The notes under the pieces are model-generated. The model was not told the origin of the DNA. It did not search any database and saw only the letters and a program-made list of their open reading frames with translations. A DNA stretch of 64,000 nt from Alphaproteobacteria bacterium (GTDB lineage: Bacteria; Pseudomonadota; Alphaproteobacteria; CAAGCB01; CAG-977). The stretch lies in contig JAKSVT010000004.1 of NCBI GenBank assembly GCA_024407875.1, positions 6,982 through 70,981 of the forward strand, written 5' to 3'. Shown here in pieces: positions 17,006-57,348 of this stretch (the stretch's first letter is position 1; every line of letters starts with the position of its first letter). A program made the translations under genes and the position numbers.

Positions 17006-17030
17006 TAACTTCATTCCTAACAAATATAAA

Positions 17031-41417: not shown

Positions 41418-42524
41418 CTAAATTGCGTATAAAACCAGCTCTTGTGAATACCTACTATGAGCTCGAATGTAAAATTTATAGGTATCATCAACATGGTAAA
41501 TAAACTTTGGAATTGTAATCAAATCTTCACGTTTATGATAAACACAAATTGTTAAAATAGGATGGTTCTTTTTAATGAGAGTCCGTGCTCCATTTAAAGC
41601 ATCTAATTCCACACCTTCAATATCCATTTTTATAAAATCAACAGGTTCTTTAATAAATTCATCCATTTTAACAACATCTATAGTTGTTTCTCCATTTTCA
41701 ACAATACCTGAAGATGTTGAATTCATCGAAAAATGCAAGGTTTCATTTTTTGCACCTACACCTTTTTTTAGACAACTAATTTTATCGAACCCTTCAAGAT
41801 TTTTTCTCATTTTTTCATAATTTAATATATCAGGTTCAAACAATATTCCTTTTCCATCATATTTCTTTCCAACTGCATTCTCATAATTTTTCACAAAAGA
41901 TAGAAAAGAATCCCCATCATAAGCACCACAATCAACAAAGCATTTTATATTATTAAAAGGAATTATATCCTTATCAAAATATTGTTCTTTTCTCCAAACA
42001 TCTTTTAATTTATTAAAATCCCCTGTTAATTTCTGTTCAAAATAACGTGTCATAGACAATTTAGAATAATCATCTTCTAACCTGTCATAAATCCAATCAA
42101 ATTCACTTTTATTATTTTGATAGAAATTCCAATCAAAAATTGGTCCTATACTCCAAAGAAAGAACAAATCCTTCTCGATAACTTGAACATTTTTTCTGTT
42201 ACTTCTTAAAGAACAAATTTTTTGTGTAGGTAAATGAAAACAACTAACAATAATCATATTGTTATTAGCATCTTCTATTTCATCTAAAGAAACAACTTCA
42301 TGATTATTAACAATTTCCCCATTTTTGTAGTATTCTTTATCAACACAAAAAGCTTTATATTCATATTTATTGTTATCTAAAAACCTTGCAAGTCTTAACC
42401 CCATTTCTGCACAGCCGTATATATAAACATTTCCATTATTTTTTAAATGTTTTTCTATGGTTTCTATTAAGCTGTTTTTTTCTTTTAATAAATTAAACAT
42501 TTTCTTCCTTATTAGATGGAACAT
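41418..42524 (-). CDS. FkbM-family methyltransferase
   Basis: 'FVDCGAYDGDS' SAM-binding motif; 368 aa. Confidence 0.6.
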   Translation of the reverse strand: MFHLIRKKMFNLLKEKNSLIETIEKHLKNNGNVYIYGCAEMGLRLARFLDNNKYEYKAFCVDKEYYKNGEIVNNHEVVSLDEIEDANNNMIIVSCFHLPTQKICSLRSNRKNVQVIEKDLFFLWSIGPIFDWNFYQNNKSEFDWIYDRLEDDYSKLSMTRYFEQKLTGDFNKLKDVWRKEQYFDKDIIPFNNIKCFVDCGAYDGDSFLSFVKNYENAVGKKYDGKGILFEPDILNYEKMRKNLEGFDKISCLKKGVGAKNETLHFSMNSTSSGIVENGETTIDVVKMDEFIKEPVDFIKMDIEGVELDALNGARTLIKKNHPILTICVYHKREDLITIPKFIYHVDDTYKFYIRAHSRYSQELVLYAI

Positions 42525-42652
42525 TTTTTATTATTATATTAACGATATGTAATTGATCGCAATAGGTCAAGACTAAATGATATCAATCTAGATATAACAA
42601 ATACATTGGCTACAAACAATAACCAACATCAACAAACAACAATTTCATAGAT

Positions 42653-42728
42653 TGGCGATCCTATCGGGATTCGAACCCGAGTTAACGCCGTGAGAGGGCG
42701 TTGTCCTAGACCACTAGACGATAGGATC
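42653..42728 (-). tRNA. tRNA-Glu (anticodon CUC as read)
   Basis: The reverse complement folds as a cloverleaf: acceptor GATCCTA/TAGGATC, D-arm 'GTCTAGTGGTCTAGGAC', anticodon stem ACGCC/GGCGT with loop CTCTCAC, T-arm GGGTTCGAATCCC, and an encoded CCA. Confidence 0.75.
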
Positions 42729-42740
42729 ATTTTAAACTCA

Positions 42741-42817
42741 TGGTGCACCCGGCGGGATTCGAACCCACGGCCCTCGGCTTCGGAAACCGATACTCTATCC
42801 AGCTGAGCTACGAGTGC
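42741..42817 (-). tRNA. tRNA-Arg (anticodon CCG)
   Basis: Reverse complement: acceptor GCACTCG/CGGGTGC, anticodon loop TTCCGAA, T-arm GTGGGTTCGAATCCCGC, and an encoded CCA. Confidence 0.75.
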
Positions 42818-42954
42818 CAAGCACACTTAGATTTAAAATACTTATTTTTTAACAAAATACAATCAAAAAAGATTATCTTGTTAAAATATTTACAAAAAAA
42901 TCATAAAAAACTCTTGACGAAATACCTAAAACAATATAAATATTCTTTTGTATT

Positions 42955-43029
42955 TGGAGCGTAGCCAAGTGGTAAGGCAAAGGACTTTGACTCCTTCATG
43001 CGCTGGTTCGAATCCAGCCGCTCCAGCCA
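42955..43029 (+). tRNA. tRNA-Gln (anticodon UUG)
   Basis: Acceptor TGGAGCG/CGCTCCA with the U1–A72 pair typical of Gln, anticodon stem AAGGA/TCCTT with loop CTTTGAC, T-arm GCTGGTTCGAATCCAGC, and an encoded CCA. Confidence 0.8.
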
Positions 43030-43038
43030 GAGTCACAA

Positions 43039-43062
43039 AGTCGTCAGAAATGGCGACTTTTT
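43039..43062 (+). terminator. Rho-independent terminator after tRNA-Gln
   Basis: AGTCGTC-agaaatg-GCGACT stem-loop followed by TTTTT. Confidence 0.65.
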
Positions 43063-43342
43063 CTTTTATTTTCAAGCATTTAATCCGGTTCGAAGATGAA
43101 TATATTTTGAAGGCTAGTTTTGCTGTATCTTCGAACTTGCTTCTATATTTTTCAATAACTTAGCTAATTGCAGCCTTTTTTAAGCATAAAAATGAACCTC
43201 TGCTAATTTTTGCAAAGGTTGAACTTCTGACATAGCTATATGAAAGGTTGTTTAGCAATATTGTTAATAAAAACATTTGCATTATTTACTATGTCAAAAT
43301 ATGTCGTAACCTAAATGTATGTTTTATATAGGATGAATATTA

Positions 43343-44253
43343 TGGCATATGAAAAGACTTTTAATTTGTTAGATTTGGCGATTTGGATGCAATCAACTCG
43401 CGAAGGAGTTAGTTTGTCAGATATTATGAGTCGCTTTCAAGTATCAAGAAGAACTGCCGAACGTATGCGAGATATGATATTAAGTCGATTTCCTCAAGTT
43501 GTTGAAGAAATCGGTGAAAATAATTCAAAACGTTGGTATATCCCGCAAGGCACATTAAAAGACTTTATTCAATTTTCGGCTGATGATATTGCTTGTCTTA
43601 ATTTAGCCAAAGATGCCTTAATTAAAGAAAAACTATCTGATAAAGCCGACCAATTAAATGCTATTATTGAAAAAATTACAGCTTCCATTAAGCCAAATAC
43701 TTTATTAAAAATAGAACCTGATGCAGAAGTTTTGTTAGAAGCTCAAGGTTTTGCTCGCCGTGTCGGTCCAAAAATTAAAATTGATACTCAATATTTGGAA
43801 ACAATTAAAGAGGCTATTTTATCTAGCAAAGAACTAAAAATTAAGCATAATAACAAAACTCAAATTGTAGCTCCTTATGGTTTCTTATATGGTAATAAGC
43901 CTTATTTGGTAGCTTATTCCAATAATGCAAAAGAGTTCAGATATTATGCTTTACACAAGTTAAATTCCGTTCAGCTGACAAATAATCATTTTATTAATAC
44001 TTTTTCATTAAACGAATTTACCAAAGATTGTTTTGGCGTTTATAAAGAAAAACCTTTTGAAGTTGAATGGTTATTTAATGCTGATGTAGCTAAAGATGTT
44101 GAAAAATATGAATTTCATCCATCTCAACAAATGATAAAAAATAAAGACGGTACTTTAACCGTAAAGTTTTTCGCAGGTGGTCAAAAAGAAATGGATTGGC
44201 ATCTTTATACCTGGGGTGATAAAGTTAAAGTAATAAAACCAGAAAGGAAATAA
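43343..44253 (+). CDS. HTH–WYL–WCX transcriptional regulator (YafY/BrxR/CapW family)
   Basis: N-terminal winged HTH ('SLSDIMSRFQVSRRTAERMRDMI'), central WYL-like domain ('APYGFLYGNKPYLVAY...RYYALHKL'), and C-terminal WCX with the 'HPSQ' hallmark. Start placed at ATG 43343 with an AGGA RBS. Confidence 0.7.
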
Positions 44254-44255
44254 AA

Positions 44256-44819
44256 ATGACGCAAGAAGAAAATAAATTAAAGTACATTGAGAAAGATACT
44301 AAAATTGTAATTTTAGGAACATTTCCCTCTGAAGCATCAAGAGATACTTTCTTTTATCACAAATCAACCAATCAGTTTTGGACCATATTAAGTAAGCTTT
44401 ATAATTGTAATGATATTTGTCATTTACAAAAGAATGAAACATCTAAAGACAAAGAAGAACAATTAATTGAAAACAGAAAAGCTTTTCTTAAAAAGCACCA
44501 AATTGGTTTATGGGATGTTATTGATAAATGTGACATAGATAAAAGCAAAGATTCCTCTATCAAAAATCCGACTTATAATGATTTAGCTTCATTAAAAACA
44601 GAATGTCCAAAGTTAGAGCACATTTATTTTAGCAGTAAAAAAGCTTTTCAATTTTATCAAAAATATTTGCGAGACAATTTAAAAGATTATGCAAGTAAAA
44701 TTTGGTTAGAAAATGTTGTTATTAAAGAAGCATTACCATCTCCAAGTTCTGCTAATGCTCGTTTGACATTAGAACAAAAGCAAAAAAGATGGGGAGAGTT
44801 GTTAGGCTTATTTAATTAA
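44256..44819 (+). CDS. UDG-superfamily DNA glycosylase-like protein (Mug/TDG-like)
   Basis: Motif A 'ILGTFPSEAS...FFYHKSTNQFW' (compare Mug 'GINPG...FAHPANRFW'). Motif B 'LPSPSSANARL' (compare 'LPNPSGLSR'). Lies 2 nt downstream of the WYL regulator. Confidence 0.5.
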   Translation: MTQEENKLKYIEKDTKIVILGTFPSEASRDTFFYHKSTNQFWTILSKLYNCNDICHLQKNETSKDKEEQLIENRKAFLKKHQIGLWDVIDKCDIDKSKDSSIKNPTYNDLASLKTECPKLEHIYFSSKKAFQFYQKYLRDNLKDYASKIWLENVVIKEALPSPSSANARLTLEQKQKRWGELLGLFN

Positions 44820-44913
44820 AAGCAATCTTCTTCTAAATCGCTAAATTTTCCTATATCTCGGTCAAATAAGCATTTTATCCATCCGCAATTGCCATTATTG
44901 TTTTTAGCGATTA

Positions 44914-45795
44914 TTATTTCACATTTATTTTCTTGTTCTGTTCTAGGCAATCTTCTTGCCATTCTTTATAACGTTTTTCAAAATGCTCTTTTGTTTCTCT
45001 TTTATACTGCTTTGGTTCTTTATCATACATATAATAACTTTCTCTATATAAAAATAAGAGTTTATCAGCATATGGAACGATATTACGATACCCGTCTTTA
45101 ATATCACTATTAATTGGTATTTTACATTGTCTTTGCTCTAGGTTTCGGTTTAGTTGAGAAAGTATAAGTATTGGAACATCTAATTTTTCTGCAATACTTT
45201 TAATATCTTGCATAAATTTTTTATAAGCTTGATTTGACTTATCTTCTGAATAAAGTGATAAAAGTTGCAAACAATCTATAACGACAAGCCCGAATTTATT
45301 TCTATTTGCAAATGCATATATCTTATCTTTTATATCACTAATAGAGCTTATTTGATTGCATAGATATATTGGCAATTGATTTATTTCATTACCGGTAAGT
45401 GCTATTTTTTCAAATTGTTTATAGTTTTCTATGTTGTGTCTTAATTCATATAAAGGAATTCCGGAAGCTAAACTAACAAACCGTTGCATTATATTCTTAT
45501 TATTGCATTCAAAATCAAAATATAAAACGTGTTTTATTTCTGAATTGTTTTGTTCTGCTTCTTCTTTGAATTTTTGTGCCACCTGATAAACACAGTTTAT
45601 TGCAAATGCCGTTTTTCCCATTGCAGGTCGTCCCGCTATAAGAACAACATCACCACCTCGAATATATCCTAGTCTTTCATCTAATCTATCTATACCTGTT
45701 GACAATCCGAGAGGCTCACTGTTCATTTGATAACGATATTCAACTTCTTTAATATATTCAAGAAATGCATCAGATATATGTAATGTTTTATCCAT
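44914..45795 (-). CDS. DnaB-family replicative helicase, C-terminal (RecA-like) domain only
   Basis: 'GLSTGIDRLDERLGYIRGGDVVLIAGRPAMGKTAF' (Walker A), 'VIDCLQLL' and 'ILSQLNRNLEQR...NSDIKDGYRNIVPYADKLLFLYRE'. The N-terminal DnaB domain is absent. Confidence 0.65.
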   Translation of the reverse strand: MDKTLHISDAFLEYIKEVEYRYQMNSEPLGLSTGIDRLDERLGYIRGGDVVLIAGRPAMGKTAFAINCVYQVAQKFKEEAEQNNSEIKHVLYFDFECNNKNIMQRFVSLASGIPLYELRHNIENYKQFEKIALTGNEINQLPIYLCNQISSISDIKDKIYAFANRNKFGLVVIDCLQLLSLYSEDKSNQAYKKFMQDIKSIAEKLDVPILILSQLNRNLEQRQCKIPINSDIKDGYRNIVPYADKLLFLYRESYYMYDKEPKQYKRETKEHFEKRYKEWQEDCLEQNKKINVK

Positions 45796-46032
45796 TTTAA
45801 TACTCCATACTAGTTTTTGTTGTATGGATATTAAACTAAAGATACGCCATATTTTGACAGATACAAATATACCAATATTGCAGATAGGTGAAATTAGTTA
45901 AAGAACAGGTTTTATTAGCAAACTAACATATTGTCATTAATAGTGGTAGGTTATAATTTACTTTTCTTAATGAAACATATATCAAAATCTAAATAGCTTA
46001 TATGGGGCGAAAGTACAATTTTCTATTTTACT

Positions 46033-46878
46033 TTATTTATCGCTAGTATTCTGATTAAGTATCGATTCAAAGAATCTATCAAATTCAAAAATTTCTTCTG
46101 CTTTCACAATTACACCAATATTGATAGGGAAACTGGTTACTGGCCTTGGAATACACGGGATGTAATCAAATTTTAAAATTCCTTCAGCATTGTATTCAAG
46201 CCCCCCATACAAAACTCCAACAAATTTAATATTATTACCTAAATATGCACCACTTTTATCAGTATACAATCCTTCGTTTAAAACAAACACAGGAGAACCA
46301 CTGCATCCGTGAAAACTTGCAATATCAATTAAAAATTCTTTTTTCCCATTGTAATTATTTTTAATATGCGTAGCAGTAATACCTTTACGAATAATTGGTT
46401 TGTGATTATATACATCTGAAAATCCTATCGGATATCCAACCATAACAATATTTTCAATAGCTGTCATGTTTTCTATTTCTTCTTGCGAAGGAATTAAACT
46501 CATATCCAATGGAATGTAAAAGGTGTGAATACCTTGTTTTATCACATTATCAAGTGCATCTGTTATTGGTAAGCAACATAAATCTACCGATAAACTTGGA
46601 TGTTCTATCCAAGGACACCCATCATATGTAAATGGAGCTGTTTTTGTATTACAGATATTTCCATCTGCATCGCATGTACATAACTCAAATTGTGTCATTA
46701 CACTATTCTTTACTACGTGTTTATTTGTAATAACGGCGGCTATATATTTACTATTATCTTTACTATTAAAATGGACAATAAAACCCGTACCTAAACTAAC
46801 TTTATGATTTTTATCAGTGCATTTAAGCAGCACAGTAGAATAAGTAATTTTTTCTGATAAACTCATTTGTTCAATCAT
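46033..46878 (-). CDS. Trypsin-like (S1/chymotrypsin-fold) serine protease, no signal peptide
   Basis: 'GTGFIV...AVITNKHVV' (His), 'HGCSGSPVFV' (Ser nucleophile); 281 aa. Confidence 0.5.
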   Translation of the reverse strand: MIEQMSLSEKITYSTVLLKCTDKNHKVSLGTGFIVHFNSKDNSKYIAAVITNKHVVKNSVMTQFELCTCDADGNICNTKTAPFTYDGCPWIEHPSLSVDLCCLPITDALDNVIKQGIHTFYIPLDMSLIPSQEEIENMTAIENIVMVGYPIGFSDVYNHKPIIRKGITATHIKNNYNGKKEFLIDIASFHGCSGSPVFVLNEGLYTDKSGAYLGNNIKFVGVLYGGLEYNAEGILKFDYIPCIPRPVTSFPINIGVIVKAEEIFEFDRFFESILNQNTSDK

Positions 46879-47030
46879 TTTTTATCTTTCAGAAAGGCTA
46901 ATTACAACATTATATATTTAGGGTTTTATTTCTCAAAACGCAAGTATTTTATTGATTTGAAAATCTATCTCGGGTTCCTAACACCCCGAAGTTAAAAACA
47001 ATTAAAATTTTAGCTCGAGAATTGCGAATT

Positions 47031-47080
47031 CACTCCAGCCAGACTTAACAGGTCGTCTTTAAAGACGGCCTTTTGCTTTA
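47031..47080 (+). repeat. Second copy of the tRNA-Gln 3'-end repeat plus hairpin (internal att-like junction)
   Basis: 'CACTCCAGCCAGA', then AGGTCGTCTTT-aa-AGACGGCCT hairpin and TTTTG. Confidence 0.55.
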
Positions 47081-47306
47081 TTTACAAGGCTTTCGGCTGG
47101 TCCGTGTGGTTAGCATCAAAAAACAGCCTTCCCGACAATTTACACGGACCAGTTATAGCAAGTTTCTTTATTTTTCAATCATTTATGAAATTTCATCTCT
47201 CTAAATATGCAATAACGCGATTTCGGGAGAAGATGGACTTCATTTACTTGAGGGAAAGATGTTGTTAATTTATTTAATTGATATTATTTTTAAAATATCC
47301 GTCAAT

Positions 47307-48605
47307 TTAGTTTTTTCCATAATTATCAAGTTTGATTTTGTTACGTATATTTTCATTATCAATATTTTCTACATATTTAATTACATTATCTGGTGCACCA
47401 TAATCACTTGCCATTTTACCTTTTTCAGTGTAAGCATTATATTCAAATTTTGATAATAATCTATCAAATCCCGTTACATCATCAATTTCGCATTTTAAAG
47501 TCTGAGATATCCTATATTTATAGATTAGATTGAATATCCCTAAATATTTTACAAGGTGATATTTAAGTTTATTATAGATAAAATCGGCTGTCGTTCTTAT
47601 AGCTCTATCATAATCCAGATTTTTCTTCTCTATATAATATTTAACTTCGCCATAAAATCCTGCTTTAAGATAACAACTTACCATATAAACAAGAACAGAG
47701 AACTCTTTACCTTCGTAAGTGGAAGTCTTATTATTGATTAATGAGTATATCGGCGAATCTTTTGCAATATCTTTTATTGTGTTCAGAAATATTTGGAAGC
47801 CATCAAAATTTATAGAATCGTACATAGTAGAATTTACACAATTTTCAATTTTAGCTAATTCCTCAGATGTTAATCCCATAATTTTATGAAATAGCGAAAC
47901 CTTATTTTGCTTTGAGATTGTCTTAAATTGAGTAAGTATGATACCAGGAAGTAAAGACGACAATCTATTTATTTCTTTTTTTCTTTCTAAATCTTGTTCC
48001 GATAAGTAATTATCTCTTGTATAATCTAGATCTATATCAGTTTTTGCAGACGTTTTATCATAATTTTTATGCTCTAAAATGGCGTCGTTTGCATATAACA
48101 CATCCATAAAATTATTTTGCAGAACAATAACTCTTCCTGAATAATGATGAAGAAATCTACCAGCACGACCCGCAATATTTTTTGCATCAAATGGTTTTAA
48201 TGGTTTAGGAGACTTTTTACATAGCGTTACAAGAATATTTTTTGCAGAGGTGTTTACTCCTTCCGTTATGGTTGTAGTTGTTGTTAAAACTTGTAATTCT
48301 CCTTGATTAAAAAATTTAATAATTTCTTTTTGAATATATTTTGGAACCAAGCCATTGTGTATACCCACACCTTTTTTCAGGGCTTTATATAATAACCAAT
48401 CTTCTGAAAATGTACTCTTTATATGTTCTAAAAATAATGCGTATTGACTATCATAATCGTGAAGCTCTGGTAAAATATCTAATAAATATTTGGCATAAGA
48501 CCTTGTTCCTTTTTTATCAGCACAATAGACAATACATTTTTCCCCATTATTAAGTAAGGTTTTTATAATTGATATAAATTTATCTGTTTTATTATTCTTA
48601 CACAT
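47307..48605 (-). pseudogene. SF2 helicase C-terminal fragment (RecA2 domain plus C-terminal extension); N-terminal ATPase domain missing
   Basis: Motifs IV–VI 'LTTTTTITEGVNTSAKNILV' and 'AGRAGR', but no Walker A/DEAD anywhere upstream. Only 75 bp separate it from the divergent neighbour. Confidence 0.5.
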
Positions 48606-48680
48606 TTTTTAACTGTAAGATTACCACAACATTGGGAAACTACTAATTTAAATCATGCAATAGGAAGATTAAGACTTATT

Positions 48681-49055
48681 ATGAAGGTATTTGAAAGATG
48701 TCTTATTAAAAATCATTGGAACAAACATCATTTACCTTTTATTGCTACTTCTGAAACAGGTGATGGTATATATTGGCATTTTCATATATTGTTTAATCAA
48801 GATAAATATACAGATGATATGTTAAATAATGCTATAAAGAAGACTATTAAATCTATAAGAGGTATGTCTGATTACTGCTTAAAATTAAAACATATTGAAG
48901 AAGATAATATAAAAACATTTGTAAAAGCTGTTAATGATACTGATTTTTATTGTTTAAAGGAGATAAAAGTTAATAGATATGGTAAATTTGACGGTGAAAG
49001 GATAATATTTTCTGATGATTTATTCAACTTGCCATATCAAAGCATATCCCATTGA
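48681..49055 (+). CDS. Hypothetical protein (124 aa) with an HUH-like 'WHFHILF' motif
   Basis: ORF only; 'HLPFIAT' followed by 'HFH' resembles HUH-endonuclease motifs, but this is speculative. Confidence 0.3.
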   Translation: MKVFERCLIKNHWNKHHLPFIATSETGDGIYWHFHILFNQDKYTDDMLNNAIKKTIKSIRGMSDYCLKLKHIEEDNIKTFVKAVNDTDFYCLKEIKVNRYGKFDGERIIFSDDLFNLPYQSISH

Positions 49056-49057
49056 GT

Positions 49058-49150
49058 CATAAACAACCCATAAACAGCCGGATTCATTTTTTATAACTAA
49101 ACCTATACCAAAAAGTAGAATTGAATCATATGGTCAAAAATAGACTTTAT
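49058..49150 (+). repeat. Direct repeat copy 1 (~93 bp), upstream of fic
   Basis: About 75% identical to 50368–50460; shared blocks 'ATAAACAACC', 'ATTCATTTTTTATAA' and 'GGTCAAAAA-T-GACTTT'. Confidence 0.6.
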
Positions 49151-49262
49151 CTCAACTATATAAAAATTACCTTATAATCAAAAAATCGTTAGTTAATCAT
49201 ATTTTATTATTGATTTATTCATAATTTAATCATAAAATAATCATAAATTATAGGAGTAAATC

Positions 49263-50348
49263 ATGACTTTTTTACCAAAATATACCATTACCAAAGATAT
49301 TTTAGCTGATTTAACTAAGATTGAAGCTGTTAAAAATTCGTTTGATGATAAACCTTTGTCACCGGTTTTGTTATCTTCGCTGCATAAAACTGCCAAAATT
49401 GCACAAAGTCACTACTCTACGCAAATTGAAGGTAATCATTTATCATTAAAACAAGTAGAAACGACGCTTTATTCTGCCAACAAATCGATTAAAGAATATC
49501 AAGGTCATGACGAAAAAGAAGTCAAAGCTTATTACAATGCTATCAATTATATGGAAAAAGTTCTTGAAAATGGTGGAGAATTTGATGAAAAGCTGGTGCA
49601 AAAAATCCATTCACTAATTGAAGGCAGTAAAAAAATTATTCCATATCGTAATGAACAAAATGCAATATACGACACATCTGACGGCTCACTTGTCTATCTG
49701 CCACCGGAAACTAAAGATGTTCCTGTTATGATGAAAGATTTGGTTGCTTGGGTAAATGATAACATTGATAAATTGCCAACACCTATTGTAGCAGGTTTAT
49801 TTCATTATCAGTTTGTGACTATCCATCCTTATTTTGACGGTAATGGTAGAACAGCACGCTTGATGACAAGTTATATTATGCGTAAATTCGGTTATGGCTT
49901 AAAAGGTATTTATTCTTTGGAAGAGTATTATGCTAAAAATCTCAAAGATTATTATCAAGCACTGGCAACACATCCGCATCACAACTATTATTTTGGCCGG
50001 AACGTTGCTGATTTAACTCCTTGGCTTGAATATTTTATTAAAGGTGTGGCGACAGCATTTGAAAATATCAATATTAAAGCACAAGAACAGCAGAACACAG
50101 GTATTAAAACGGATATATCACCAATGTTGCGTAAACTGGATATTAAACAACGCAAAATTTTAGAATTATTTGTGGAGTTTGATCAAATAACCTCAAATCA
50201 AGCAGGTGAATATTTGAATTTATCATCACAATCAGCCAGACTTTTATTAAACAGATGGGTAGAAGAAGGATTTTTAATAATAGCAAATAAAGCGCGTAAA
50301 AACAGAACTTATGGTTTAGCACAAGAATATGAACAGCTGATATCATAA
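49263..50348 (+). CDS. Fic-family protein (AMPylase-type) with C-terminal winged HTH
   Basis: Canonical Fic motif 'HPYFDGNGRTARL'; 361 aa. Confidence 0.8.
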   Translation: MTFLPKYTITKDILADLTKIEAVKNSFDDKPLSPVLLSSLHKTAKIAQSHYSTQIEGNHLSLKQVETTLYSANKSIKEYQGHDEKEVKAYYNAINYMEKVLENGGEFDEKLVQKIHSLIEGSKKIIPYRNEQNAIYDTSDGSLVYLPPETKDVPVMMKDLVAWVNDNIDKLPTPIVAGLFHYQFVTIHPYFDGNGRTARLMTSYIMRKFGYGLKGIYSLEEYYAKNLKDYYQALATHPHHNYYFGRNVADLTPWLEYFIKGVATAFENINIKAQEQQNTGIKTDISPMLRKLDIKQRKILELFVEFDQITSNQAGEYLNLSSQSARLLLNRWVEEGFLIIANKARKNRTYGLAQEYEQLIS

Positions 50349-50367
50349 TAAAGCGCTCTCCATTGCT

Positions 50368-50460
50368 CTATAAACAACCTAGAAACAAGCTATTCATTTT
50401 TTATAAGTAAACTTATATCAAACAGGTAAAAGGTTGCTATAGGTCAAAAAATGGACTTTC
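50368..50460 (+). repeat. Direct repeat copy 2 (~93 bp), downstream of fic
   Basis: See copy 1. Confidence 0.6.
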
Positions 50461-50507
50461 TTACCAAATGGAAAAGAAGTTTATATTAAAGATACGGTAT
50501 CAAAAAA

Positions 50508-50580
50508 GGGCCCTATACAATCAAGATTCATTTCTACTGGTTAGTTTATAGTCAAAAATAAATCTATGCGTATAGGGCCC
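50508..50580. repeat. Inverted repeat, 11-bp perfect arms GGGCCCTATAC/GTATAGGGCCC with a 51-nt spacer
   Basis: Read directly. Lies immediately upstream of the recombinase remnant and is GC-rich in an AT-rich context. Confidence 0.6.
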
Positions 50581-50728
50581 CAAAACAAGCTTTAGTGTTT
50601 GTGTTTAGTTAATTAGTTGGCACCTTCCAATTTGATGTTGCAATCTGATAAAAACTCAGCAAATCTTCTTAAAGGAAAACCTGATTTTAAGCAAAGATTC
50701 TCGCGGTATTGATATTCTTTTCTGGAAT

Positions 50729-51757
50729 ATGTGCGTTTTAATGGCTAACAGTTATATTTTAAGCCTGTCTGACAATGTTCGCCGTAGTCTTGAATATAAC
50801 TGGAGCCAAGGCAAATGGCAGAGTTTGGCACCTATCGGATATCTCAATCAAAAAGATAAACATGGCAAATCCATTATAGTGATTGATGAAGAACGAGCAC
50901 CTATTATCAAGCGTTTGTTTGAAGAATATGCTACCGGTCTGCATACCGCACAAAGTTTATTGATTTTGGCTTGTAAATTAGGACTTACCGCTAAAGAAAC
51001 TTATTCAGAAGAGACACCTCAAAGAAAAAGATTTATCAGCCGTACCAAGATTTATGAAATTCTGCGTAATCCTTTTTATGCCGGAATTATGTGTGTCAAA
51101 GGAAAATTGATGCCACATATCCACGGCAAAATTATTGATAAAAAACTTTATGACCAAGTGCAGCAAATTATGGATGCTAAAGGTATGGAAAGAGAAATAC
51201 ATAAACATCAGCAAAAATACAAGGTTAAAAAGTTTGCATTTCGTGGAATTGTTTTGTGTGGCAGATGTCATCACTTAATGTCTCCGGATTGCAAAACCAA
51301 GACAAACGGCAAGCAATATACTTATTTAAGATGTTACAACAAATGCGGTCAAATGCCGATTAATGAAACCATATTGCTTAAACAGCTTGAAACAGAAGTA
51401 TTTGCTAAATTTTTCATACCACCGCAAGATTTTAATAAGATAAAACAATCTCTTATCAATCATTATAAACGACCATCACATGCAAAAACAGAGCTTTTGA
51501 ATAAACTGGTTAACCTGATTTGCAATATGCCAACCATTATGCAACAAGCAGATGCCGGCACCAAAAATGAAATATTGGTTATTCTGCTTCAAAATTTCAC
51601 CTTAAATGAGCAAACACTCTCTTATTCTCTTCGCTCGCCGTTTGATAAGCTGATTGAGACAGATTATCACAATTGGAAAGATATTATTATACATAATTTC
51701 AAAGACTTATCGTCGATTGGATATAATCTTAAAGCCATCAACTTAAAGGAGGATTAA
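50729..51757 (+). pseudogene. Large serine recombinase remnant lacking the N-terminal catalytic (resolvase) domain
   Basis: Paralog of 52169..53353, starting at the equivalent 'M.VLMA.NY..SLS.NV.RSL..NW..GKWQ' point. Has recombinase domain and Zn ribbon ('CGRCHHLM...LRCYNKCG'), but no 'ARVSS' catalytic domain upstream. Confidence 0.55.
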
Positions 51758-51760
51758 ACT

Positions 51761-52165
51761 ATGCGTAAAAAATACCAGAAGAAACTCATTGAAAAGTGTA
51801 CCGAAGCCATAACATTTGCGCGTGTTTCTAGCGAAAAACAGGAACGTGGCGCTTCTATTGATGCTCAAAAAGAATTGATCTACGATTATTGTATGGAGAA
51901 AAATTTCAAAATCATTAAAGAGTTTGAAATTACCGAGAGTACAACTCGCGGCGATCGTGTAAAATATAATGAAATGCTTGATTTTATTCGTTCTCGCAAC
52001 AAAAAGACCGCTATTGTTGTAAACTGCGTTGATAGACTTCAAAGAAGTGATGAAGATAATCCGGCACTTAATAAACTGCGCCGAGAAGGCAAAATTGAAA
52101 TACACTTTATGAAAGAGCATATTATCTTAGATGAAACTTCTCCGGTACAAGATATTTTTGCATAG
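51761..52165 (+). CDS. Serine recombinase N-terminal catalytic domain (ends at an in-frame TAG)
   Basis: 'ITFARVSSEKQ' (catalytic Ser) and 'VVNCVDRLQRS'. The ORF ends 'DIFA*' at TAG 52163–52165, in frame with the next ORF. Confidence 0.6.
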   Translation: MRKKYQKKLIEKCTEAITFARVSSEKQERGASIDAQKELIYDYCMEKNFKIIKEFEITESTTRGDRVKYNEMLDFIRSRNKKTAIVVNCVDRLQRSDEDNPALNKLRREGKIEIHFMKEHIILDETSPVQDIFA

Positions 52166-52168
52166 AAA

Positions 52169-53353
52169 ATGAATGTGCTAATGGCTGGCAACTACACGGA
52201 TTCATTATCATATAACGTAAAAAGAAGTTTGGTTAAAAACTGGAATTCTGGTAAATGGCAAGGCATGGCACCTCTCGGATATTTAAATCGCCATACAGAT
52301 GATGACAACAACGAAGCCATTATTATTGTTGATCCTGTTCGCGGACCGATTATCAAGCATTTATTTGAAGAATTTGCAACCGGTAAACATACTTTGAAAA
52401 CATTGTGGTATTTATCCAAAGAATTAGGTTTATATACCAAAAATAAAAAGAAAAAAGGCTGCTTTGTGAGCAGAAACACGCTTTATGATGTTCTGACCAA
52501 TCCGTTTTATCATGGTTTGATGTGTATCAAAGGCGAGTTTTACAATCATATTTATGAGCCGCTGATAAGCAAAGAATTATTTGACCGTGTACAAGCCATT
52601 TTGACCGGAAACGGCAATCATAATCGCAATAACACCACAGAATATGCCAAAACACCTTACATTTTCCGCGGTTTGATACATTGTAAAGAATGCGGTTGTT
52701 TGATTACGCCGGAAAAGAAAATCAAAAAGAACGGTAGCACGTATATTTATTTGCGTTGCGGTCATCCTTGTAAAGAATGTCATCAAGGAATAGTTAACGA
52801 AAATGTGATTATTGAGCAGCTGAAAAAGGAAGTTATGGATAAAATATCATTACCGCCGAAATTGCAGGAAATCGTCAAAGAAAAACTAACTCAAGAATTA
52901 AATGATACATCGGCTTTTAATAAGACTATGAAAACCAATATCACGAATAAACTGAACGAATTGAAAGTTAAAGAAGACAATTTACTTGATTTCTACCTGG
53001 AAGGAAAGCTGCCACAAGCAACTTATGAAGCCAAACAAGAACAGATTGCCAATCAGCGAGCTGAACTTGAGCAGACAGCCGAAAAATACAAAAATATTGA
53101 TGCCGATATGAAGAAAAGAGTTGTGCAGGTTATGGCTTTGGCAAATAATATCTCTAAGTTGTTTGATATGGCAACTCCAACCAGAAGAAACGAGTTATTA
53201 CAATTACTTATTTCAAACTGTCAACTTAATGATTCAAAATTAGAATATACCGTAAACGCACCATTTAACTGGTTAATGGATAGCAATAATTATACCGAAT
53301 GGACCACCGTCGTCATTGAGCATTTAGATGACTTTGAATGCGTGAAGGTGTAA
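52169..53353 (+). CDS. Large serine recombinase C-terminal portion (recombinase domain, Zn ribbon, coiled coil)
   Basis: Same frame as 51761..52165, separated by TAG+AAA. 'CKECGCLITP...LRCGHPCKEC' ribbon and a C-terminal coiled coil. Confidence 0.6.
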   Translation: MNVLMAGNYTDSLSYNVKRSLVKNWNSGKWQGMAPLGYLNRHTDDDNNEAIIIVDPVRGPIIKHLFEEFATGKHTLKTLWYLSKELGLYTKNKKKKGCFVSRNTLYDVLTNPFYHGLMCIKGEFYNHIYEPLISKELFDRVQAILTGNGNHNRNNTTEYAKTPYIFRGLIHCKECGCLITPEKKIKKNGSTYIYLRCGHPCKECHQGIVNENVIIEQLKKEVMDKISLPPKLQEIVKEKLTQELNDTSAFNKTMKTNITNKLNELKVKEDNLLDFYLEGKLPQATYEAKQEQIANQRAELEQTAEKYKNIDADMKKRVVQVMALANNISKLFDMATPTRRNELLQLLISNCQLNDSKLEYTVNAPFNWLMDSNNYTEWTTVVIEHLDDFECVKV

Positions 53354-53434
53354 GGATTATAATGGATGATATTTTAATAATATTGCAGATTTTATTTAAT
53401 TTATCATATACAATCACCGTAAATATCCAGGAGA

Positions 53435-55858
53435 TTGTACATGAAGATTATAAAAGAAATTACAAAATTGAAAAACTTTGCATCTTTTGAAGATTACGAA
53501 TGGGACTGCAAAGCATTAAATGATTTTGAAAAATATAATCTATTTTATGGGTTAAACGGTAGTGGAAAAACGACTTTATCTCGTTTATTCTATTTTCTTA
53601 ATGAAGGTATGATTTGTCATGAGGGGCACTATGATAGTGAATTTGGTATATTGCTTAATGACAACTCTTTAATTACACAATATGATAATAATGCATTAAA
53701 AGGAAAAATATGTGTTTTTAATGACTTATTTATTGAAAATTATTTAGATTTTAAGACCGTTAAATCAAAAAAAATTGTATATTTTTCTGCTGGAAAAGAT
53801 GCAAAAATGTTATTAGAATACAAAAAAGACTTAGAGAGAAGAAAACAAATTATAGCTAATAAACTCCAAAAAGTAAAAGATGAGTATTCACAACTTGATA
53901 TTAGTAATAAAAAAATTTATGGAGATTTTCAAGACAGCGTAGTAAATACTTTAGATATTAATAAAAATAAATTCAAAATTACTAACGCTATAAGCACATT
54001 AGATGTAATTCTTAAAAATCAATCTACTATATTCCTTTCAAATCAAGAAATTGATAACCAAAGAAATTTATATGCACAAACCCAACTCCCTATATTGGAT
54101 TATTCGTATTTGAAATCATATCCGTTAACTGTAGATGATATAGAAAAACTATCAGATTTATTAAAAGAAAAAATTGAAAGAAAAAATCTCTCCGATTTAC
54201 GGGATGAAATAGCTGATTGGCTAAATAATGGTATTACCTACCAAAATGAGCAATCTAACGGGAAATGTATTTTTTGCAATCAACCATTACATCCAACTAT
54301 CTGGCAAGAAAGAATCAAACAAATATTTCATATGACTGAAAAAGATGCCATATTTCAAATTAAAGAACAAACAATTAATCGGTATATTTCTGAAATACAA
54401 AATATACTCATGTCATCATTCAACATAAAAGAAAATATTAATCAATTTTACCCAAAATATAAAGTTGCATTCTCTAGTATTATAGGATCTTTACAATCTG
54501 AGTTCGACAACCTTAAAAATTTATTAGAAAAATTGATAAGTTATTTAACTGAAAAATTGAAAGATACTAAACGTAACATTGATATATCTGAGATTATGAT
54601 GGAAAATAATCTCAGTTTATATAATAATCTTGTTGTGTCTATTAATAATATAAATAGAACATTAGAAAAATTTGAAGATTTATTTACTAACAATAACCAA
54701 CATAGTCGAGTAATATCAAGTGAACAGACTGAGGCTTTTAATAATATATGTAGTTACTGTGCAACCTCTTTTGTCAAAGAATTATTAACTAACCATGATG
54801 CATTAAAAAGAAATGAAGCAGCCTCCAATAAATATATTAGTTTATTTAATAAAATAGAAACGAAATTAAAGCAGAAAGCACAAGAACTAGCAAATTCAGA
54901 AGCTCCTATTAACGAAATAAATGATATAATTCAACAAATAATGGGAAAAAATAAATTTTACTTTGATAAAGATGGTGTCGATGGGCAATATAGAATAAAA
55001 CGGATTGAACATAATAAAATAAATGAAGCCATAAATCTTAGCGAAGGTGAAAGAAATATTATATCTTTTGCTTTTTTTATCACATATATTAAGGAAAAGA
55101 TTGAAGATAGCATCATTGTAATTGATGATCCTATCTCTTCACTAGATAGTTCTTATTTTTTCAACATATTGAATCTTCTGTTAAGTTCTAGATTAATAAG
55201 AAATAATAAGTTAAAACAAATATTTATTTTAACCCATAATTTTTATTTTTTCAAAAAGCTAAGAAAAAATATTAAAGGACAGAAATGTCCACAATTAGAT
55301 GCAAATGGTAATATTATACGAGATTCAAATGGGAAAGAGTTAATTAAACTTTGTAAATATTCAAAAAAACAATCTCTCGAAAATAAGCAAATATACCAAA
55401 TTGTAAAAAGTAATTACGCATCATCAATTCAGCCACCATCTGACTACTTACGCAAATACAACAGCGAATATCTCACACTAATTGAACAATTCATAAAATA
55501 TAAAAATAATTTAGATATTACATCATATCAATATGATGAAGGTATTTCTGTTCTAAATACAATGAGAAGAATTTTAGAAACCTTTCTCGAAAACAAATAC
55601 CCTACATCAGGAGGAGAAGGCTTTAATGCAAAATTCCAAGAAACAATCACTAAATTACACAGAGATGACTTATTATATTTAGCAGACATTCTTAATATCG
55701 GTAGTCATGGTGATAACCCTTTCCCCTCTCTTAACTATACTAAATATGAAGATTTCTCAAAGTTGACTGATGATTATCTTGATTATATTAAGAGCCTAGA
55801 TATTGATTTCTATAGCAGTGTATTTGAGCCATTATTATCTATACATATGAAACCATAG
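53435..55858 (+). CDS. PrrC/RloC-like ABC ATPase (AAA_13) with CxxC zinc-hook; candidate anticodon nuclease / abortive-infection protein
   Basis: Walker A 'GLNGSGKTT' and a long coiled coil carrying 'CIFCNQ'. ABC signature 'LSEGER' and Walker B/D-loop 'IIVIDDPISSLDS'. The ~240-aa C-terminal domain ('RRILE...GSHG') is unassigned. Confidence 0.5.
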   Translation: MYMKIIKEITKLKNFASFEDYEWDCKALNDFEKYNLFYGLNGSGKTTLSRLFYFLNEGMICHEGHYDSEFGILLNDNSLITQYDNNALKGKICVFNDLFIENYLDFKTVKSKKIVYFSAGKDAKMLLEYKKDLERRKQIIANKLQKVKDEYSQLDISNKKIYGDFQDSVVNTLDINKNKFKITNAISTLDVILKNQSTIFLSNQEIDNQRNLYAQTQLPILDYSYLKSYPLTVDDIEKLSDLLKEKIERKNLSDLRDEIADWLNNGITYQNEQSNGKCIFCNQPLHPTIWQERIKQIFHMTEKDAIFQIKEQTINRYISEIQNILMSSFNIKENINQFYPKYKVAFSSIIGSLQSEFDNLKNLLEKLISYLTEKLKDTKRNIDISEIMMENNLSLYNNLVVSINNINRTLEKFEDLFTNNNQHSRVISSEQTEAFNNICSYCATSFVKELLTNHDALKRNEAASNKYISLFNKIETKLKQKAQELANSEAPINEINDIIQQIMGKNKFYFDKDGVDGQYRIKRIEHNKINEAINLSEGERNIISFAFFITYIKEKIEDSIIVIDDPISSLDSSYFFNILNLLLSSRLIRNNKLKQIFILTHNFYFFKKLRKNIKGQKCPQLDANGNIIRDSNGKELIKLCKYSKKQSLENKQIYQIVKSNYASSIQPPSDYLRKYNSEYLTLIEQFIKYKNNLDITSYQYDEGISVLNTMRRILETFLENKYPTSGGEGFNAKFQETITKLHRDDLLYLADILNIGSHGDNPFPSLNYTKYEDFSKLTDDYLDYIKSLDIDFYSSVFEPLLSIHMKP

Positions 55859-55896
55859 AAATTTTATTCTTCTATCATAGTCCGTGTATTGCAAGC

Positions 55897-55942
55897 TCAC
55901 TCCAGCCAAATTTTAAAGTCGTCAGAAATGGCAACTTTTTTT
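55897..55942 (+). repeat. Third copy of the tRNA-Gln 3'-end repeat plus (degenerate) hairpin; right boundary of island
   Basis: 'CACTCCAGCCAAA', then AAGTCGTCAGAAATGGCAACT (one G-to-A change relative to the tRNA-proximal hairpin) and T7. Confidence 0.55.
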
Positions 55943-55975
55943 ATAATCAATATTGATATTTTGAAAGTTTAAAAT

Positions 55976-56422
55976 ATGTTAAATCAAGATTTAAAAATGG
56001 AAAAATTTACAGAAAACGATAGACAAGAATTAATGAATATGATGATAGAATTCTTTTCTTCAGAAGCTGTATCTACAAATGGAAATCCTGAAATTTTTAA
56101 ATCTACTATAGATAATTGTATATATAACCCTACATATGTAGAAGGATATATTTTAAAATTCAAAAATGAAAATGCAGGTTATATTATAATTGCCAAAAGT
56201 TTTACTACAGAATTTGGGAAAAATTGCCTTTGGCTTGAAGATTTATATTTAAAAAATCAATTTAGAGGGAAAGGCATCATTCCTTATTGCTTAGATCTTA
56301 TAAAAACAAAATATCCTGATTATATCTTTAAATTAGAAGTTGAAGCAGAAAATGAACATGCAATACACGTATATAAGAAATTCGGATTTAAAGAATTTCC
56401 TTATTTTGTAATGCATACTTAA
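55976..56422 (+). CDS. GNAT-family N-acetyltransferase
   Basis: 'RGKGI' and 'HVYKKFGFKE' motifs; 148 aa. Confidence 0.6.
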   Translation: MLNQDLKMEKFTENDRQELMNMMIEFFSSEAVSTNGNPEIFKSTIDNCIYNPTYVEGYILKFKNENAGYIIIAKSFTTEFGKNCLWLEDLYLKNQFRGKGIIPYCLDLIKTKYPDYIFKLEVEAENEHAIHVYKKFGFKEFPYFVMHT

Positions 56423-56443
56423 TAGAACTAAATATTAATATAT

Positions 56444-56638
56444 TTATATCTGATGAGAATATTCTGATTCGTTTGTTTCCACAAATTCATCATCATGATC
56501 AAGCATAATTTCAGCTAATACGTCATTATTAATCTTGTCTTCGCCATTTATTTTTTCATAACATACACGAGGACCTAGTTCTGTGTATTCTACTTTATAC
56601 ACCTTACTGTTAATTCTATAATACTTATAATCGCTCAT
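56444..56638 (-). CDS. Small acidic protein (64 aa), translationally coupled downstream of the RelA/SpoT-domain gene; putative antitoxin
   Basis: TAATG overlap at 56636–56640; D/E-rich sequence. Confidence 0.35.
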   Translation of the reverse strand: MSDYKYYRINSKVYKVEYTELGPRVCYEKINGEDKINNDVLAEIMLDHDDEFVETNESEYSHQI

Positions 56639-57348
56639 TATCTTGCCCTTTTACTCAAAAGCAACGCTTTCTTTGTTGCATTATTTAATAGCTTTGGCTC
56701 TTCTTTTGTTTCTTGTTTTGTTTCTTCAGGAACATTCTTTAATTTTCTACCTTTTGTTGTAGCATTATATGTTCTTGCAGCTTCAGCGTATAAATATTTT
56801 TGTGCTTGAGAATGAATATTTAATGCAATCTGTTCACTAGGCGTCAAAGCTCTATCTTTTGCTCCAGCCATAATGGAACGAATTTTTTCATAATGTAAAT
56901 GAGCTTTTTCATTTGCTTCTAAATAAGCACGTAAATGAATTTGAATTTCAACAGGAGCTCCACTAGATACAGCAACTACATATTTAACATCTCTGTATCC
57001 ATCTTTATTTGGTTCATCCATACGATCTACTTTTCTAACTGTATCAGCTCTTTTATCTAATATACCTGTAACAGCATCAATTTGTTCCAAAGTATCACAT
57101 ACAATACGACCTCTAGCTAAATCCTGTAATCTTGAAGGATCTCCATCATATTTATGATTTAATTTTTCAAAAGCTCTTGCACGTCCCTTTAAAGGAGCTG
57201 CTGTATATGTAACCCCAGGAACCTCTTTAATTACATTTTCACAAAAAGCATCCAATTCAGGCTTTGATTTTTCAGCATAAGCATAAGCTTCATCTAAAGT
57301 TTTTGGTTTGTATTCAGGTCTCATTTTTTGTCTCCGATACATATTCAA
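56638..57348 (-). CDS. Stand-alone RelA/SpoT-domain (small alarmone synthetase-like) protein; candidate toxSAS
   Basis: 'GRARAFEK..', 'GRIVCDT', 'DGYRDVKYVV' and 'EIQIHL' (compare EIQIRT); 236 aa with a basic C-terminal tail. Confidence 0.55.
   Translation of the reverse strand: MNMYRRQKMRPEYKPKTLDEAYAYAEKSKPELDAFCENVIKEVPGVTYTAAPLKGRARAFEKLNHKYDGDPSRLQDLARGRIVCDTLEQIDAVTGILDKRADTVRKVDRMDEPNKDGYRDVKYVVAVSSGAPVEIQIHLRAYLEANEKAHLHYEKIRSIMAGAKDRALTPSEQIALNIHSQAQKYLYAEAARTYNATTKGRKLKNVPEETKQETKEEPKLLNNATKKALLLSKRAR

Follow-up and report, generated by a model that had tools for sequence, protein, structure and literature searches.

This report concerns an island beside a tRNA-Gln(UUG) gene in a 64,000-nt window of contig JAKSVT010000004.1, from an Alphaproteobacteria bacterium (assembly GCA_024407875.1). 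The segment 43030-55908 was read as two integrative elements of one family, A and B, lying in tandem at the CCA end of the tRNA gene; the probability of this reading was put at about 0.78. Element B holds the remnants of two large serine recombinase (LSR) genes, termed LSR1 and LSR2, whose relatives in other genomes are described below. All unlabelled coordinates refer to the window, and L-numbers designate homologous loci from other genomes or metagenomes. The junctions were named J1 (the tRNA copy of the repeat, 43021), J2 (47033), and J3 (55900).

Junctions at the tRNA-Gln gene

The elements and their ends were delimited by the following features.

42955-43029, + strand: tRNA-Gln(UUG), called by ARAGORN and Rfam (68.9 bits), CCA encoded; attL-like junction at its 3' end
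43030-47041, + strand: element A, 4,012 bp, lying between J1 and J2; ends of the TTCGAAGA / CTCGAGAA class; without a recombinase
43037-43060, T-run to ~43065, + strand: J1 terminator hairpin from the left end of element A (terminator scan; -12.7 kcal/mol, z = -3.85)
43088-43136: palindrome of element A, GTTCGAAGA-N31-TCTTCGAAC, starting 59 nt after the core (inverted-repeat scan, alignment)
46996-47041, + strand: right-end motif of element A, TAGCTCGAGAATTGCGAATTCA, with the exact J2 core CTCCAGCCA at 47033-47041 (nhmmer E = 2e-9)
47042-55908, + strand: element B, 8,867 bp, lying between J2 and J3; an LSR element that is mosaic and partly deleted, ends of the TCCGTGT class
47050-47071, + strand: J2 terminator hairpin from the left end of element B (-13.3 kcal/mol, z = -3.84)
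47097-47152: palindrome of element B, CTGGTCCGT-N38-ACGGACCAG, starting 56 nt after the core (inverted-repeat scan, alignment)
55870-55908, + strand: right-end motif of element B, TAGTCCGTGTATTGCAAGCTCA, with the J3 core CTCCAGCCA at 55900-55908 (nhmmer E = 6.6e-10); attR-like junction
55915-55938, + strand: J3 hairpin and T-run, one stem mismatch (-6.6 kcal/mol, z = -3.0)

The final 9 nt of the tRNA gene (43021-43029), CTCCAGCCA, were found as exact copies starting at 43021, 47033, 55900, and 56862. Four copies were thus seen against 0.16 expected, and none of 100 shuffles gave four. The initial annotation had located repeats of the tRNA end at 47033, which stands, and at 55899, which is one base off the true start; the "GA" by which it had extended the repeat is present after J1 and J2, but J3 reads "AA". 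The fourth copy (56862-56870), absent from that annotation, is located inside a minus-strand RelA_SpoT-like open reading frame (ORF). It was rejected as a further junction given this position and the lack of both an upstream motif and a hairpin (z = +0.58), and because the latter two are missing it is probably a chance occurrence. An Rfam scan of 42500-57500 returned nothing beyond three tRNAs.

At J1 the tRNA is followed by a left end, at J2 a right end is followed by a left end, and at J3 a right end abuts unrelated flanking sequence, with a GNAT acetyltransferase gene 68 nt further on; this pattern therefore points to two related elements in tandem, and it supports the original proposal of two tandem integration events at one tRNA. 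An intact tRNA is thus present at one edge of the island, with exact repeats of its 3' end at 47033 and 55900. Both ends are conserved modules that were found in dozens of other genomes. The ends of A and B are 60-75% diverged homologues, not recent duplicates. The ~30 nt upstream of the J2 and J3 cores are held in common at 73% identity (TAGCTCGAGAATTGCGAATTCA versus TAGTCCGTGTATTGCAAGCTCA), the J1 and J3 hairpins agree at 88% over 33 nt, and the likeness of J1 to J2 continues beyond the hairpin through a TTTATTT(T/A)CAAG block and then the palindrome. The left ~170 bp of element A are 82-90% identical to left ends in L013 and L039. The repeat itself is short. Identity between tRNA and element extends over only 7-9 nt across the family, and it reaches 9 nt in the window where the host acceptor stem happens to read CGCTCCA.

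Each of the three cores is followed by a GTCGTC-containing hairpin and a T-run, starting 7-8 nt downstream. The J1 and J2 hairpins were the top two terminator-like sites of the region, that of J2 being the best in the scan, and the folding z-scores listed above bear out the stem-loop and T-run that had been noted soon after each copy of the tRNA end. Among 20 homologous junctions (window plus related loci) the hairpin sequence is highly variable and its pairing is kept: seven of the eight stem pairs show compensatory double changes, and the T-run after the stem is conserved. Because the stem pairs covary in this alignment, the junction hairpin is best regarded as a structure under selection. 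Every element brings its own terminator, in agreement with the suggestion that the tRNA terminator is regenerated at each junction. That the repeats might be chance 9-11-mers without conserved hairpins, a possibility raised at the outset, is contradicted by the covarying hairpins and by the conservation of the ends across genomes. The J3 hairpin is accompanied by neither the TTTATTTACAAG block nor a palindrome (inverted-repeat scan), and it is presumably the original terminator of the tRNA.

Gene content and decay of the two elements

Element A contains four ORFs.

43315-44253, + strand: WYL-WCX regulator (Pfam WYL and WCX; PADLOC WYL 2.6e-23)
44256-44819, + strand: UDG-superfamily glycosylase of the DNA-deoxyinosine glycosylase type (Pfam UDG; TIGR04274, 100 bits versus a cutoff of 80)
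44914-45795, - strand: ORF with the DnaB C-terminal domain only (Pfam DnaB_C; DnaB residues ~150-400, N-terminal domain missing)
46033-46878, - strand: trypsin-like peptidase, candidate defence protein PDC-S45, full length (PADLOC PDLC05022 9.3e-91, profile positions 13-288 of 293)

All NCBIfam DnaB models match the third of these only from about position 150 and score far under their cutoffs. Element B is larger and more visibly rearranged.

47307-48605, - strand: fragment of HamB, the Hachiman helicase (PADLOC HamB 4.4e-147, profile positions 323-756 of 767; Pfam Helicase_C only)
48681-49055, + strand: 124-aa ORF, 5'-truncated counterpart of a 212-aa ORF of L004 (window 48600 aligns with L004 1600, inside the L004 ORF at 1417-2055)
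49263-50348, + strand: Fic protein of the SoFic type, intact (Pfam Fic; PADLOC SoFic 3.2e-50)
50344-50665, + strand: deletion scar (self-BLAST; repeat families D1, D5, and D20; in-frame stops upstream of 50666)
50666-51757, + strand: LSR1 remnant, 96% identical to residues 116-478 of the intact 478-aa LSR1 of L080 (BLASTP; Pfam Recombinase and Zn_ribbon_recom only)
51761-53353, + strand: LSR2 pseudogene of 530 codons with one in-frame TAG (52163-52165) at the Trp135 codon
53435-55858, + strand: AAA_13 ATPase, candidate defence protein PDC-S06, full length (Pfam AAA_13 1.3e-82; PADLOC PDC-S06 3e-84)

Searches with Pfam, PADLOC, and NCBIfam thus agreed with the earlier description of the DNA between the repeats as accessory; most of it is defence genes and gene fragments. 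The AAA_13 gene is the one that had been called RloC-like, and it fills a variable cargo slot between LSR2 and the right end. The HamB fragment comprises the C-terminal 56% of the protein, and HamA was not found in the island by Pfam or PADLOC; the pairing of HamA with full-length HamB that marks Hachiman is therefore not present. The homology of the 124-aa ORF breaks at 48600.

The losses of element B could be read by comparison with L004, a locus of a metagenome-assembled genome (MAG; GCA_037293155.1). Window 48600-50607 aligns with L004 1600-3606 at 93% identity; for window 50665-53018 the counterpart is L004 8905-11258, at 91.6%. Because two nearby window blocks align to L004 blocks so much further apart, the alignment implies a deletion of ~5.3 kb from element B. 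In L004 the stretch that is missing here contains genes for a DUF3768 protein, an autotransporter, and a small resolvase, as well as a 54-aa ORF and the beginning of LSR1, so that the losses of B include the small resolvase gene, the 54-aa ORF, and the first 115 LSR1 codons. At the scar, the truncated LSR1 is preceded by a second, diverged copy of the sequence upstream of Fic, start codon included; in self-BLAST, 50370-50459 is 77% identical to 49059-49148. As a separate observation, the Fic upstream region with its start codon occurs twice (49033-49279 and 50344-50468, 70-88% identity), and the second copy is followed by a short ORF remnant only, which indicates that element B once carried a second Fic module.

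Recombinase genes are confined to element B and both are damaged, as had been stated before. LSR1 has lost residues 1-115, including the catalytic Resolvase domain, and has stop codons upstream. The lesion in LSR2 is a single TGG>TAG transition at a tryptophan (W135) that is invariant in 20 homologues; on both grounds, reading of the TAG as a recoded sense codon was rejected. The window is 100% identical to a Logan contig of SRR17543911, which is from the same organism and so gives no independent confirmation of the TAG. Pfam domain searches found no tyrosine recombinase in the island. The array is probably unable to move by itself, a conclusion drawn from the gene damage that coincides with the immobilisation suspected initially. 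It had also been supposed that element A relied on a recombinase acting in trans. The recombinase of element B may not have been its helper, because the ends of A are of the TTCGAAGA / CTCGAGAA class and those of B of the TCCGTGT class.

The right flank of the island was also inspected.

55976-56422, + strand: GNAT acetyltransferase
56444-56638, - strand: 64-aa ORF
56638-57348, - strand: RelA_SpoT protein, 236 aa

The RelA_SpoT protein has a weak PADLOC match to PDC-S33, and the 64-aa ORF abuts it in an arrangement like that of a small-alarmone-synthetase toxin-antitoxin pair. The gene may be native, because it overlaps the end of a CNNM gene.

A large serine recombinase family linked to the element ends

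LSR1 and LSR2 are paralogous large serine recombinases, not tyrosine integrases. The two halves of LSR2 match PF00239, PF07508, and PF13408, and LSR1 keeps only the latter two. LSR2 contains the motif FARVSSEKQ, and its R21, S23, and S24 are kept without exception in an alignment of 20 homologues. A search for LSR2 homologues gave 888 at E <= 1e-10; intact ones of 526-530 aa occur at 95%, 94%, 83%, 82%, and 78% identity. A locus scan limited to one genome per species comprised 61 loci, about 38 of them from MAGs of uncultured low-GC Alphaproteobacteria, mostly from human (Hadza, Nepal) and ruminant guts. The core module of the nearest intact relatives consists of a small resolvase (~200 aa; present in L004 and L081 but not seen in L080), an ORF of 54-58 aa, LSR1 (478-482 aa), LSR2 (~530 aa), and variable cargo. 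Adjacent intact LSR1 and LSR2 (526-530 aa) genes are found in L004, L080, and L081, and remnants of both are found in the window; L080 comes from SRR19897738 and L081 from SRR14597538. The pairing is not universal; the more distant L002, L029, and L037 have LSR2 only. LSR1 and LSR2 are 40% identical, and LSR1 is shorter by ~49 residues in the coiled-coil region of the zinc-ribbon domain (L080 4320-5756 compared with P0002, an intact LSR2 protein). In characterised serine integrases this region controls direction.

Small serine resolvases (~200 aa, Resolvase plus HTH_7) lie beside the LSR genes at L004 7498-8405, L081 3940-4876, L028 8119-9446, L002 16515-17114, and L006 14372-14965. The feature made up of the resolvase and the 54-58-aa ORF was also recorded at L080 3999-4163, and the small ORF stands just upstream of the LSRs in L004, L080, and L081; it could be a directionality factor.

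A hidden Markov model (HMM) of the ~30-nt right-end motif, which ends in CTCCAGCCA, was built from 27 copies. In 33 of 45 loci the motif was located downstream of LSR2 and in its orientation, between 50 and 7,561 nt past the stop codon; all 47 hits of the model in 1.38 Mb were on the strand of the LSR genes. A tRNA-Gln(UUG) gene lies upstream in the same orientation in L028, L029, L037, and L048, and L080 (LSR2 94% identical) starts inside the 3' end of a tRNA-Gln and continues with a left end matching that at window J2. No tyrosine recombinase was found in three complete tRNA-proximal elements (the E1 elements of L029, L037, and L028), the only recombinases of which are LSR2 and small resolvases; their cargo comprises restriction-modification genes, ankyrin and SHOCT proteins, and an AAA_13 ATPase. 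The sequence of the right arm varies with the LSR2 clade:

window's clade: TCCGTGTATTGCAAGCTCA
clade at 52-54% identity to the search query: TCCGTGTATTACCAGACCT
clade at ~45% identity to the search query: TCCGCG(A/G)ATTGCGAA
L038: TTCGAGAATTGCAAGCTCA

Because LSR2 is linked to the end motif and to tRNA-Gln, the arm covaries with its clade, and a tyrosine recombinase is absent, LSR2 is the probable integrase of these elements.

The position of the crossover was deduced from the extent of shared sequence. In L028, L029, L037, L048, and L080 the tRNA ends in CCCCAGCCA and the element motif in CTCCAGCCA, and the common block is only CCAGCCA. The right-end motif of element B, a 30-nt arm, is identical at window J3 and in L002, L010, L011, L012, and L037, and these sequences part directly after CTCCAGCCA. 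For both reasons the crossover would fall inside CCAGCCA, and the spacer and hairpin would then belong to the downstream DNA. A crossover after the hairpin was considered and rejected, since the identical right arms part directly after CTCCAGCCA.

Departures from the usual target were seen in two settings. A sub-clade core, CCCCTGCCA or CTCCTGCCA, occurs at L070 6377-6530, in L018, L020, L022, and L024, and at L006 14098-14135; in L070 it ends a 5'-truncated tRNA-Trp(CCA)-like sequence, which is called by neither ARAGORN nor Rfam and is followed by a normal left-end module. The likeness suggests that the sub-clade switched its target from tRNA-Gln to tRNA-Trp, the 3' ends of which are one base apart. 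Partial or hybrid tRNA-Gln 3' ends also lie inside arrays (L029 16250-16293, L029 ~14590-14612, and L045 ~10850-10871), either as a right-end arm fused to the host sequence CCAGCCACCCCAGCCA or as 19-nt pieces of the tRNA 3' end; a left-end module comes after each. Such hybrids and fragments suggest recombination at more than one register, or of the tRNA with its mimics.

The left-end module includes a ~50-bp palindrome that begins 56-59 nt after the core at ~20 junctions, every tRNA-adjacent one except that of L028 among them; the loci include L029, L037, L039, L013, L026, L040, and L048. In L029 the palindrome GTCCGTGTA-N32-TACACGGAC occurs four times. Its arms contain a word that is also found in the outer part of the right-end motif, and they mostly covary with that motif. 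It is missing from the array-ending junctions with a known tRNA-proximal start (window J3, L029 17052, and L037 17204), and it is missing from many other junctions too, some of them internal. In size it equals a complete serine-integrase site, yet integration leaves it unsplit. The distance from the outer right-arm word (GTCCG) to the step between CCA and GCCA is 25-26 nt, i.e. half of the palindrome, which fits a right arm acting as a half-site; our guess is that the palindrome may be an accessory binding site. Insertions of ~90 nt were noted in the left-end module, inside the palindrome at L038 ~12440-12530 and between the hairpin and the TTTATTTTCAAG block at L039 9540-9650. Both may represent small mobile insertions.

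Arrays often comprise 2-5 units in this family; three junctions were counted in the window, five in L029, four in L039, and three each in L037 and L028. Units range from 760 bp to 14.3 kb, the short ones containing one or two genes of unknown function. What stands between LSR2 and the motif varies by locus: the window has AAA_13 there, L004 has HamA-HamB, and L002 an AAA_15 pair; L028 and L029 have a 905-aa SF1 helicase-like protein, and L006 has AAA_17 with ASCH. At least one unit without a recombinase (L027 14813-17800) retains the last kilobase of an LSR2 gene, and because of this remnant deletion is a demonstrated route to recombinase-less units; elements A and B of the window agree with the decay of arrays by deletion.

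Two further observations pertain to array borders. L002 16083-16314 is 81% identical to window 47034-47263 and is inverted, beside the small resolvase at 16515-17114; this left-end module and core in opposite orientation could represent an invertible segment or a second, converging array. L006, L007, and L009 encode an identical LSR2 protein, being the same element on separate metagenome contigs, and differ in the genes right of the small resolvase (from ~14372; in L009 from ~6449), with FdtA and ATP-grasp genes in L006 and Glyco_transf_11 in L007 and L009. This difference is a strain-level polymorphism at the island border, within a glycan-synthesis region.

Proposed mechanism, alternatives, and known systems

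The following mechanism is proposed. LSR2, joined by LSR1 in the closest relatives, would recombine a site on the element with the 3' end of the tRNA gene, with the exchange inside CCAGCCA. The anatomy of the elements is apparent from the sequences. The right end consists of a recognition arm of ~22 nt (tAGTCCGTGTATTGCAAGCTCA or a variant) plus a copy of the last 7-9 nt of the tRNA. The left end brings a new spacer, the rho-independent terminator hairpin, the TTTATTTACAAG block, and the ~50-bp palindrome, such that each junction restores the tRNA gene together with its terminator. Exchangeable cargo, mostly anti-phage genes, occupies the space from LSR2 to the right end. Catalysis by LSR2, the exact crossover, and the order of the two insertions are what we infer from these patterns. 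The predicted empty attB junction is GGTTCGAATCCAGCCGCTCCAGCCA joined to AATTTTAAAGTCGTCAGAAATGGCAAC; that of circular B would be AGTCCGTGTATTGCAAGCTCACTCCAGCCA joined to GACTTAACAGGTCGTCTTTAAAGACGG, and that of circular A TAGCTCGAGAATTGCGAATTCACTCCAGCCA joined to GAGTCACAAAGTCGTCAGAAATGGCGAC.

A broader proposal was also formulated. It holds that this is an undescribed LSR family at the tRNA-Gln CCA end (one sub-clade apparently at tRNA-Trp) that builds defence arrays resembling those of the staphylococcal cassette chromosome (SCC), and that its sites follow a grammar unknown for serine integrases, with one arm by the crossover and a ~50-bp palindrome of the same arm 56-59 nt inside. Taken as a whole, this proposal is tentative, and we would give it somewhat poorer than even odds. 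If it is true, the palindrome could control synapsis or direction, or allow serial capture at hybrid sites.

Several points count against the reading of tandem, LSR-driven integration. An empty or singly occupied tRNA-Gln site was not found among close relatives in the databases searched, which contain no relative of this species nearer than about 66% protein identity, and no circular junction was observed. The flanking CNNM protein has its sole identical copy in the same organism (the NCBI MAG and Logan SRR17543911), and its next relatives are 65-66% identical and not syntenic. A scan of JGI metagenomes with the tRNA-Gln 3' half gave no hits to a 33-mer and five to a 25-mer, all in unrelated tRNAs in DNA of 58-68% GC. 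The GC content is 0.25-0.35 inside and outside the island, with no step at the junctions, although little weight attaches to this, since the hosts among which the elements circulate are low in GC. The role given to LSR2 is deduced from association. No clear pseudo-palindrome surrounds the core in 14 reconstructed element-to-element junctions (the best matched ~7 of 22 positions), and the sole signal in a dyad scan of the same junctions was the terminator hairpin. Serine integrases normally recombine attP with attB only, and a tandem array would need recombination at hybrid sites, which is known for CcrAB and would have to apply here too. Finally, the hairpin at J3 hardly differs from the one that an element brought to J1, so that the sequence beyond J3 could be the relic of a third element, not native flank.

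Three other explanations were weighed against tandem integration by LSRs. In one, the units that lack a recombinase (element A; in L029, L039, and L013, units of 0.76-3 kb) are mobile cassettes in their own right, captured and excised in trans by a resident LSR at each repeated site, as in an integron or SCC. Arrays with up to five sites, single-gene units of 760-1,359 bp, the complete left-end module and right-end motif kept by every unit, and neighbouring units that can differ in end class all suit this idea. It is nonetheless unlikely: the recombinase-less unit of L027 is a deletion remnant with the 3' part of LSR2, element A contains a gene fragment, no recombinase-less unit of at least 300 nt was shared by two contexts among the loci fetched, and no excision products were observed. 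An integron proper is further disfavoured, in that neither the island nor its complete relatives contain a tyrosine recombinase and the repeated sites mimic tRNA 3' ends.

A somewhat less probable account has these as classical tyrosine-integrase islands, the integrase having been lost or being encoded elsewhere, with the serine recombinases as passengers or catalysts of another reaction (resolution, inversion). Insertion at the 3' end of a tRNA gene, with that end repeated, is the hallmark of tyrosine integrases, and the missing dyad symmetry around the core is in keeping with them. Among the tRNA-targeting tycheposons, moreover, 910 of 937 have a tyrosine recombinase (Hackl et al., 10.1101/2020.12.28.424599). 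Nevertheless, no such enzyme is present in the island or in the three complete tRNA-proximal relatives, LSR2 is the sole gene that keeps a consistent position and orientation relative to the end motif, and the identity with the tRNA spans just 7-9 nt. Least credible, to the point of being nearly negligible, is the notion that the repeats are not integration scars at all, having arisen by chance or by local duplication or homologous recombination in one variable region by the tRNA. The evidently fortuitous 9-mer at 56862, the uniform GC content, and the internal duplications of tRNA-proximal sequence in L028 and L029 are in its favour. It is opposed by the 0.16 exact copies expected, by the conservation of the ~30-nt motif, hairpin, and left-end module in dozens of unrelated contexts, and by the 60-75% divergence of the homologous A and B ends. 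Tandem integration of two elements of an LSR-linked family accordingly remains the preferred reading of the island.

Taken singly, the window locus is an ordinary, immobilised, decaying genomic island; the interest lies in the family, which is widespread in poorly studied Alphaproteobacteria of human and ruminant guts, apparently undescribed, and most likely to insert by means of its LSRs. Searches of the literature on LSRs with tRNA-Gln, and on serine recombinases in connection with tRNA genes, with defence islands, and with tandem arrays, did not turn up a description of it, tycheposons being the nearest. It provides a clear case of LSRs, rather than tyrosine integrases, associated with a tRNA 3'-end site, and its hot spot swaps Hachiman, SoFic, PDC-S06, PDC-S45, pAgo, restriction-modification, and AbiE systems. 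The slot between LSR2 and the right end is a ready place in which to find new defence genes. The family could help to explain how serine recombinases build tandem arrays, and a clade with a compact tRNA-end target, varied arms, and a possible accessory site could serve genome engineering.

Tycheposons, known from marine Prochlorococcus, include a minority with an LSR, and many have replication modules; successive integrations at one tRNA push older elements outward, leaving partial tRNAs and degraded integrases between units (10.1101/2020.12.28.424599). The present family resembles them in being tRNA-targeted cargo islands with stacked insertions, but here an LSR is the rule, and the complete elements examined have no primase/polymerase module. 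With classical tRNA-linked islands and prophages it shares the layout of an intact tRNA on one side and a repeated tRNA 3' end on the other, possible tandem arrays, and the character of a defence hot spot. It differs from them in lacking a tyrosine recombinase and in an exact repeat of 7-9 nt, compared to the usual 15-50+ nt.

The recombinases have the Resolvase, Recombinase, and zinc-ribbon architecture of phiC31, Bxb1, A118, SPbeta SprA, and TnpX/TndX, and as in those systems the sequence common to the partner sites is very short. Characterised serine integrases mostly target protein-coding genes, and their attP is an imperfect palindrome of ~50 bp centred on the crossover. An LSR at a tRNA 3'-end site is therefore unusual, and, unlike those attP sites, the only clear ~50-bp palindrome of this family is 56-59 nt off the crossover and is not split by integration.

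The most similar working system would seem to be the composite SCCmec islands of Staphylococcus, which are moved by CcrAB/CcrC. SCC elements are non-conjugative, non-phage islands mobilised by LSRs, often by a pair of neighbouring paralogues; their target is the 3' end of a conserved gene, which is restored on insertion, and they leave a short direct repeat at each junction, form tandem composites that include recombinase-less units, and have variable accessory cargo and no transfer genes. A non-conjugative, non-phage character, paired LSRs, a site at the restored 3' end of a conserved gene, a repeat at each junction, tandem arrays with recombinase-less units, and variable cargo are likewise features of the window family. 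Its LSRs are not Ccr orthologues (NCBIfam CcrA 22.9 bits with a cutoff of 700, CcrC 42.7 with a cutoff of 900), and their best NCBIfam match is XisF, at 52-57 bits versus a cutoff of 375. The two systems also differ in that the family targets a tRNA gene rather than rlmH/orfX, resides in Alphaproteobacteria, carries anti-phage instead of resistance cargo, and has a terminator hairpin at every junction and a ~50-bp palindrome in nearly every left end examined.

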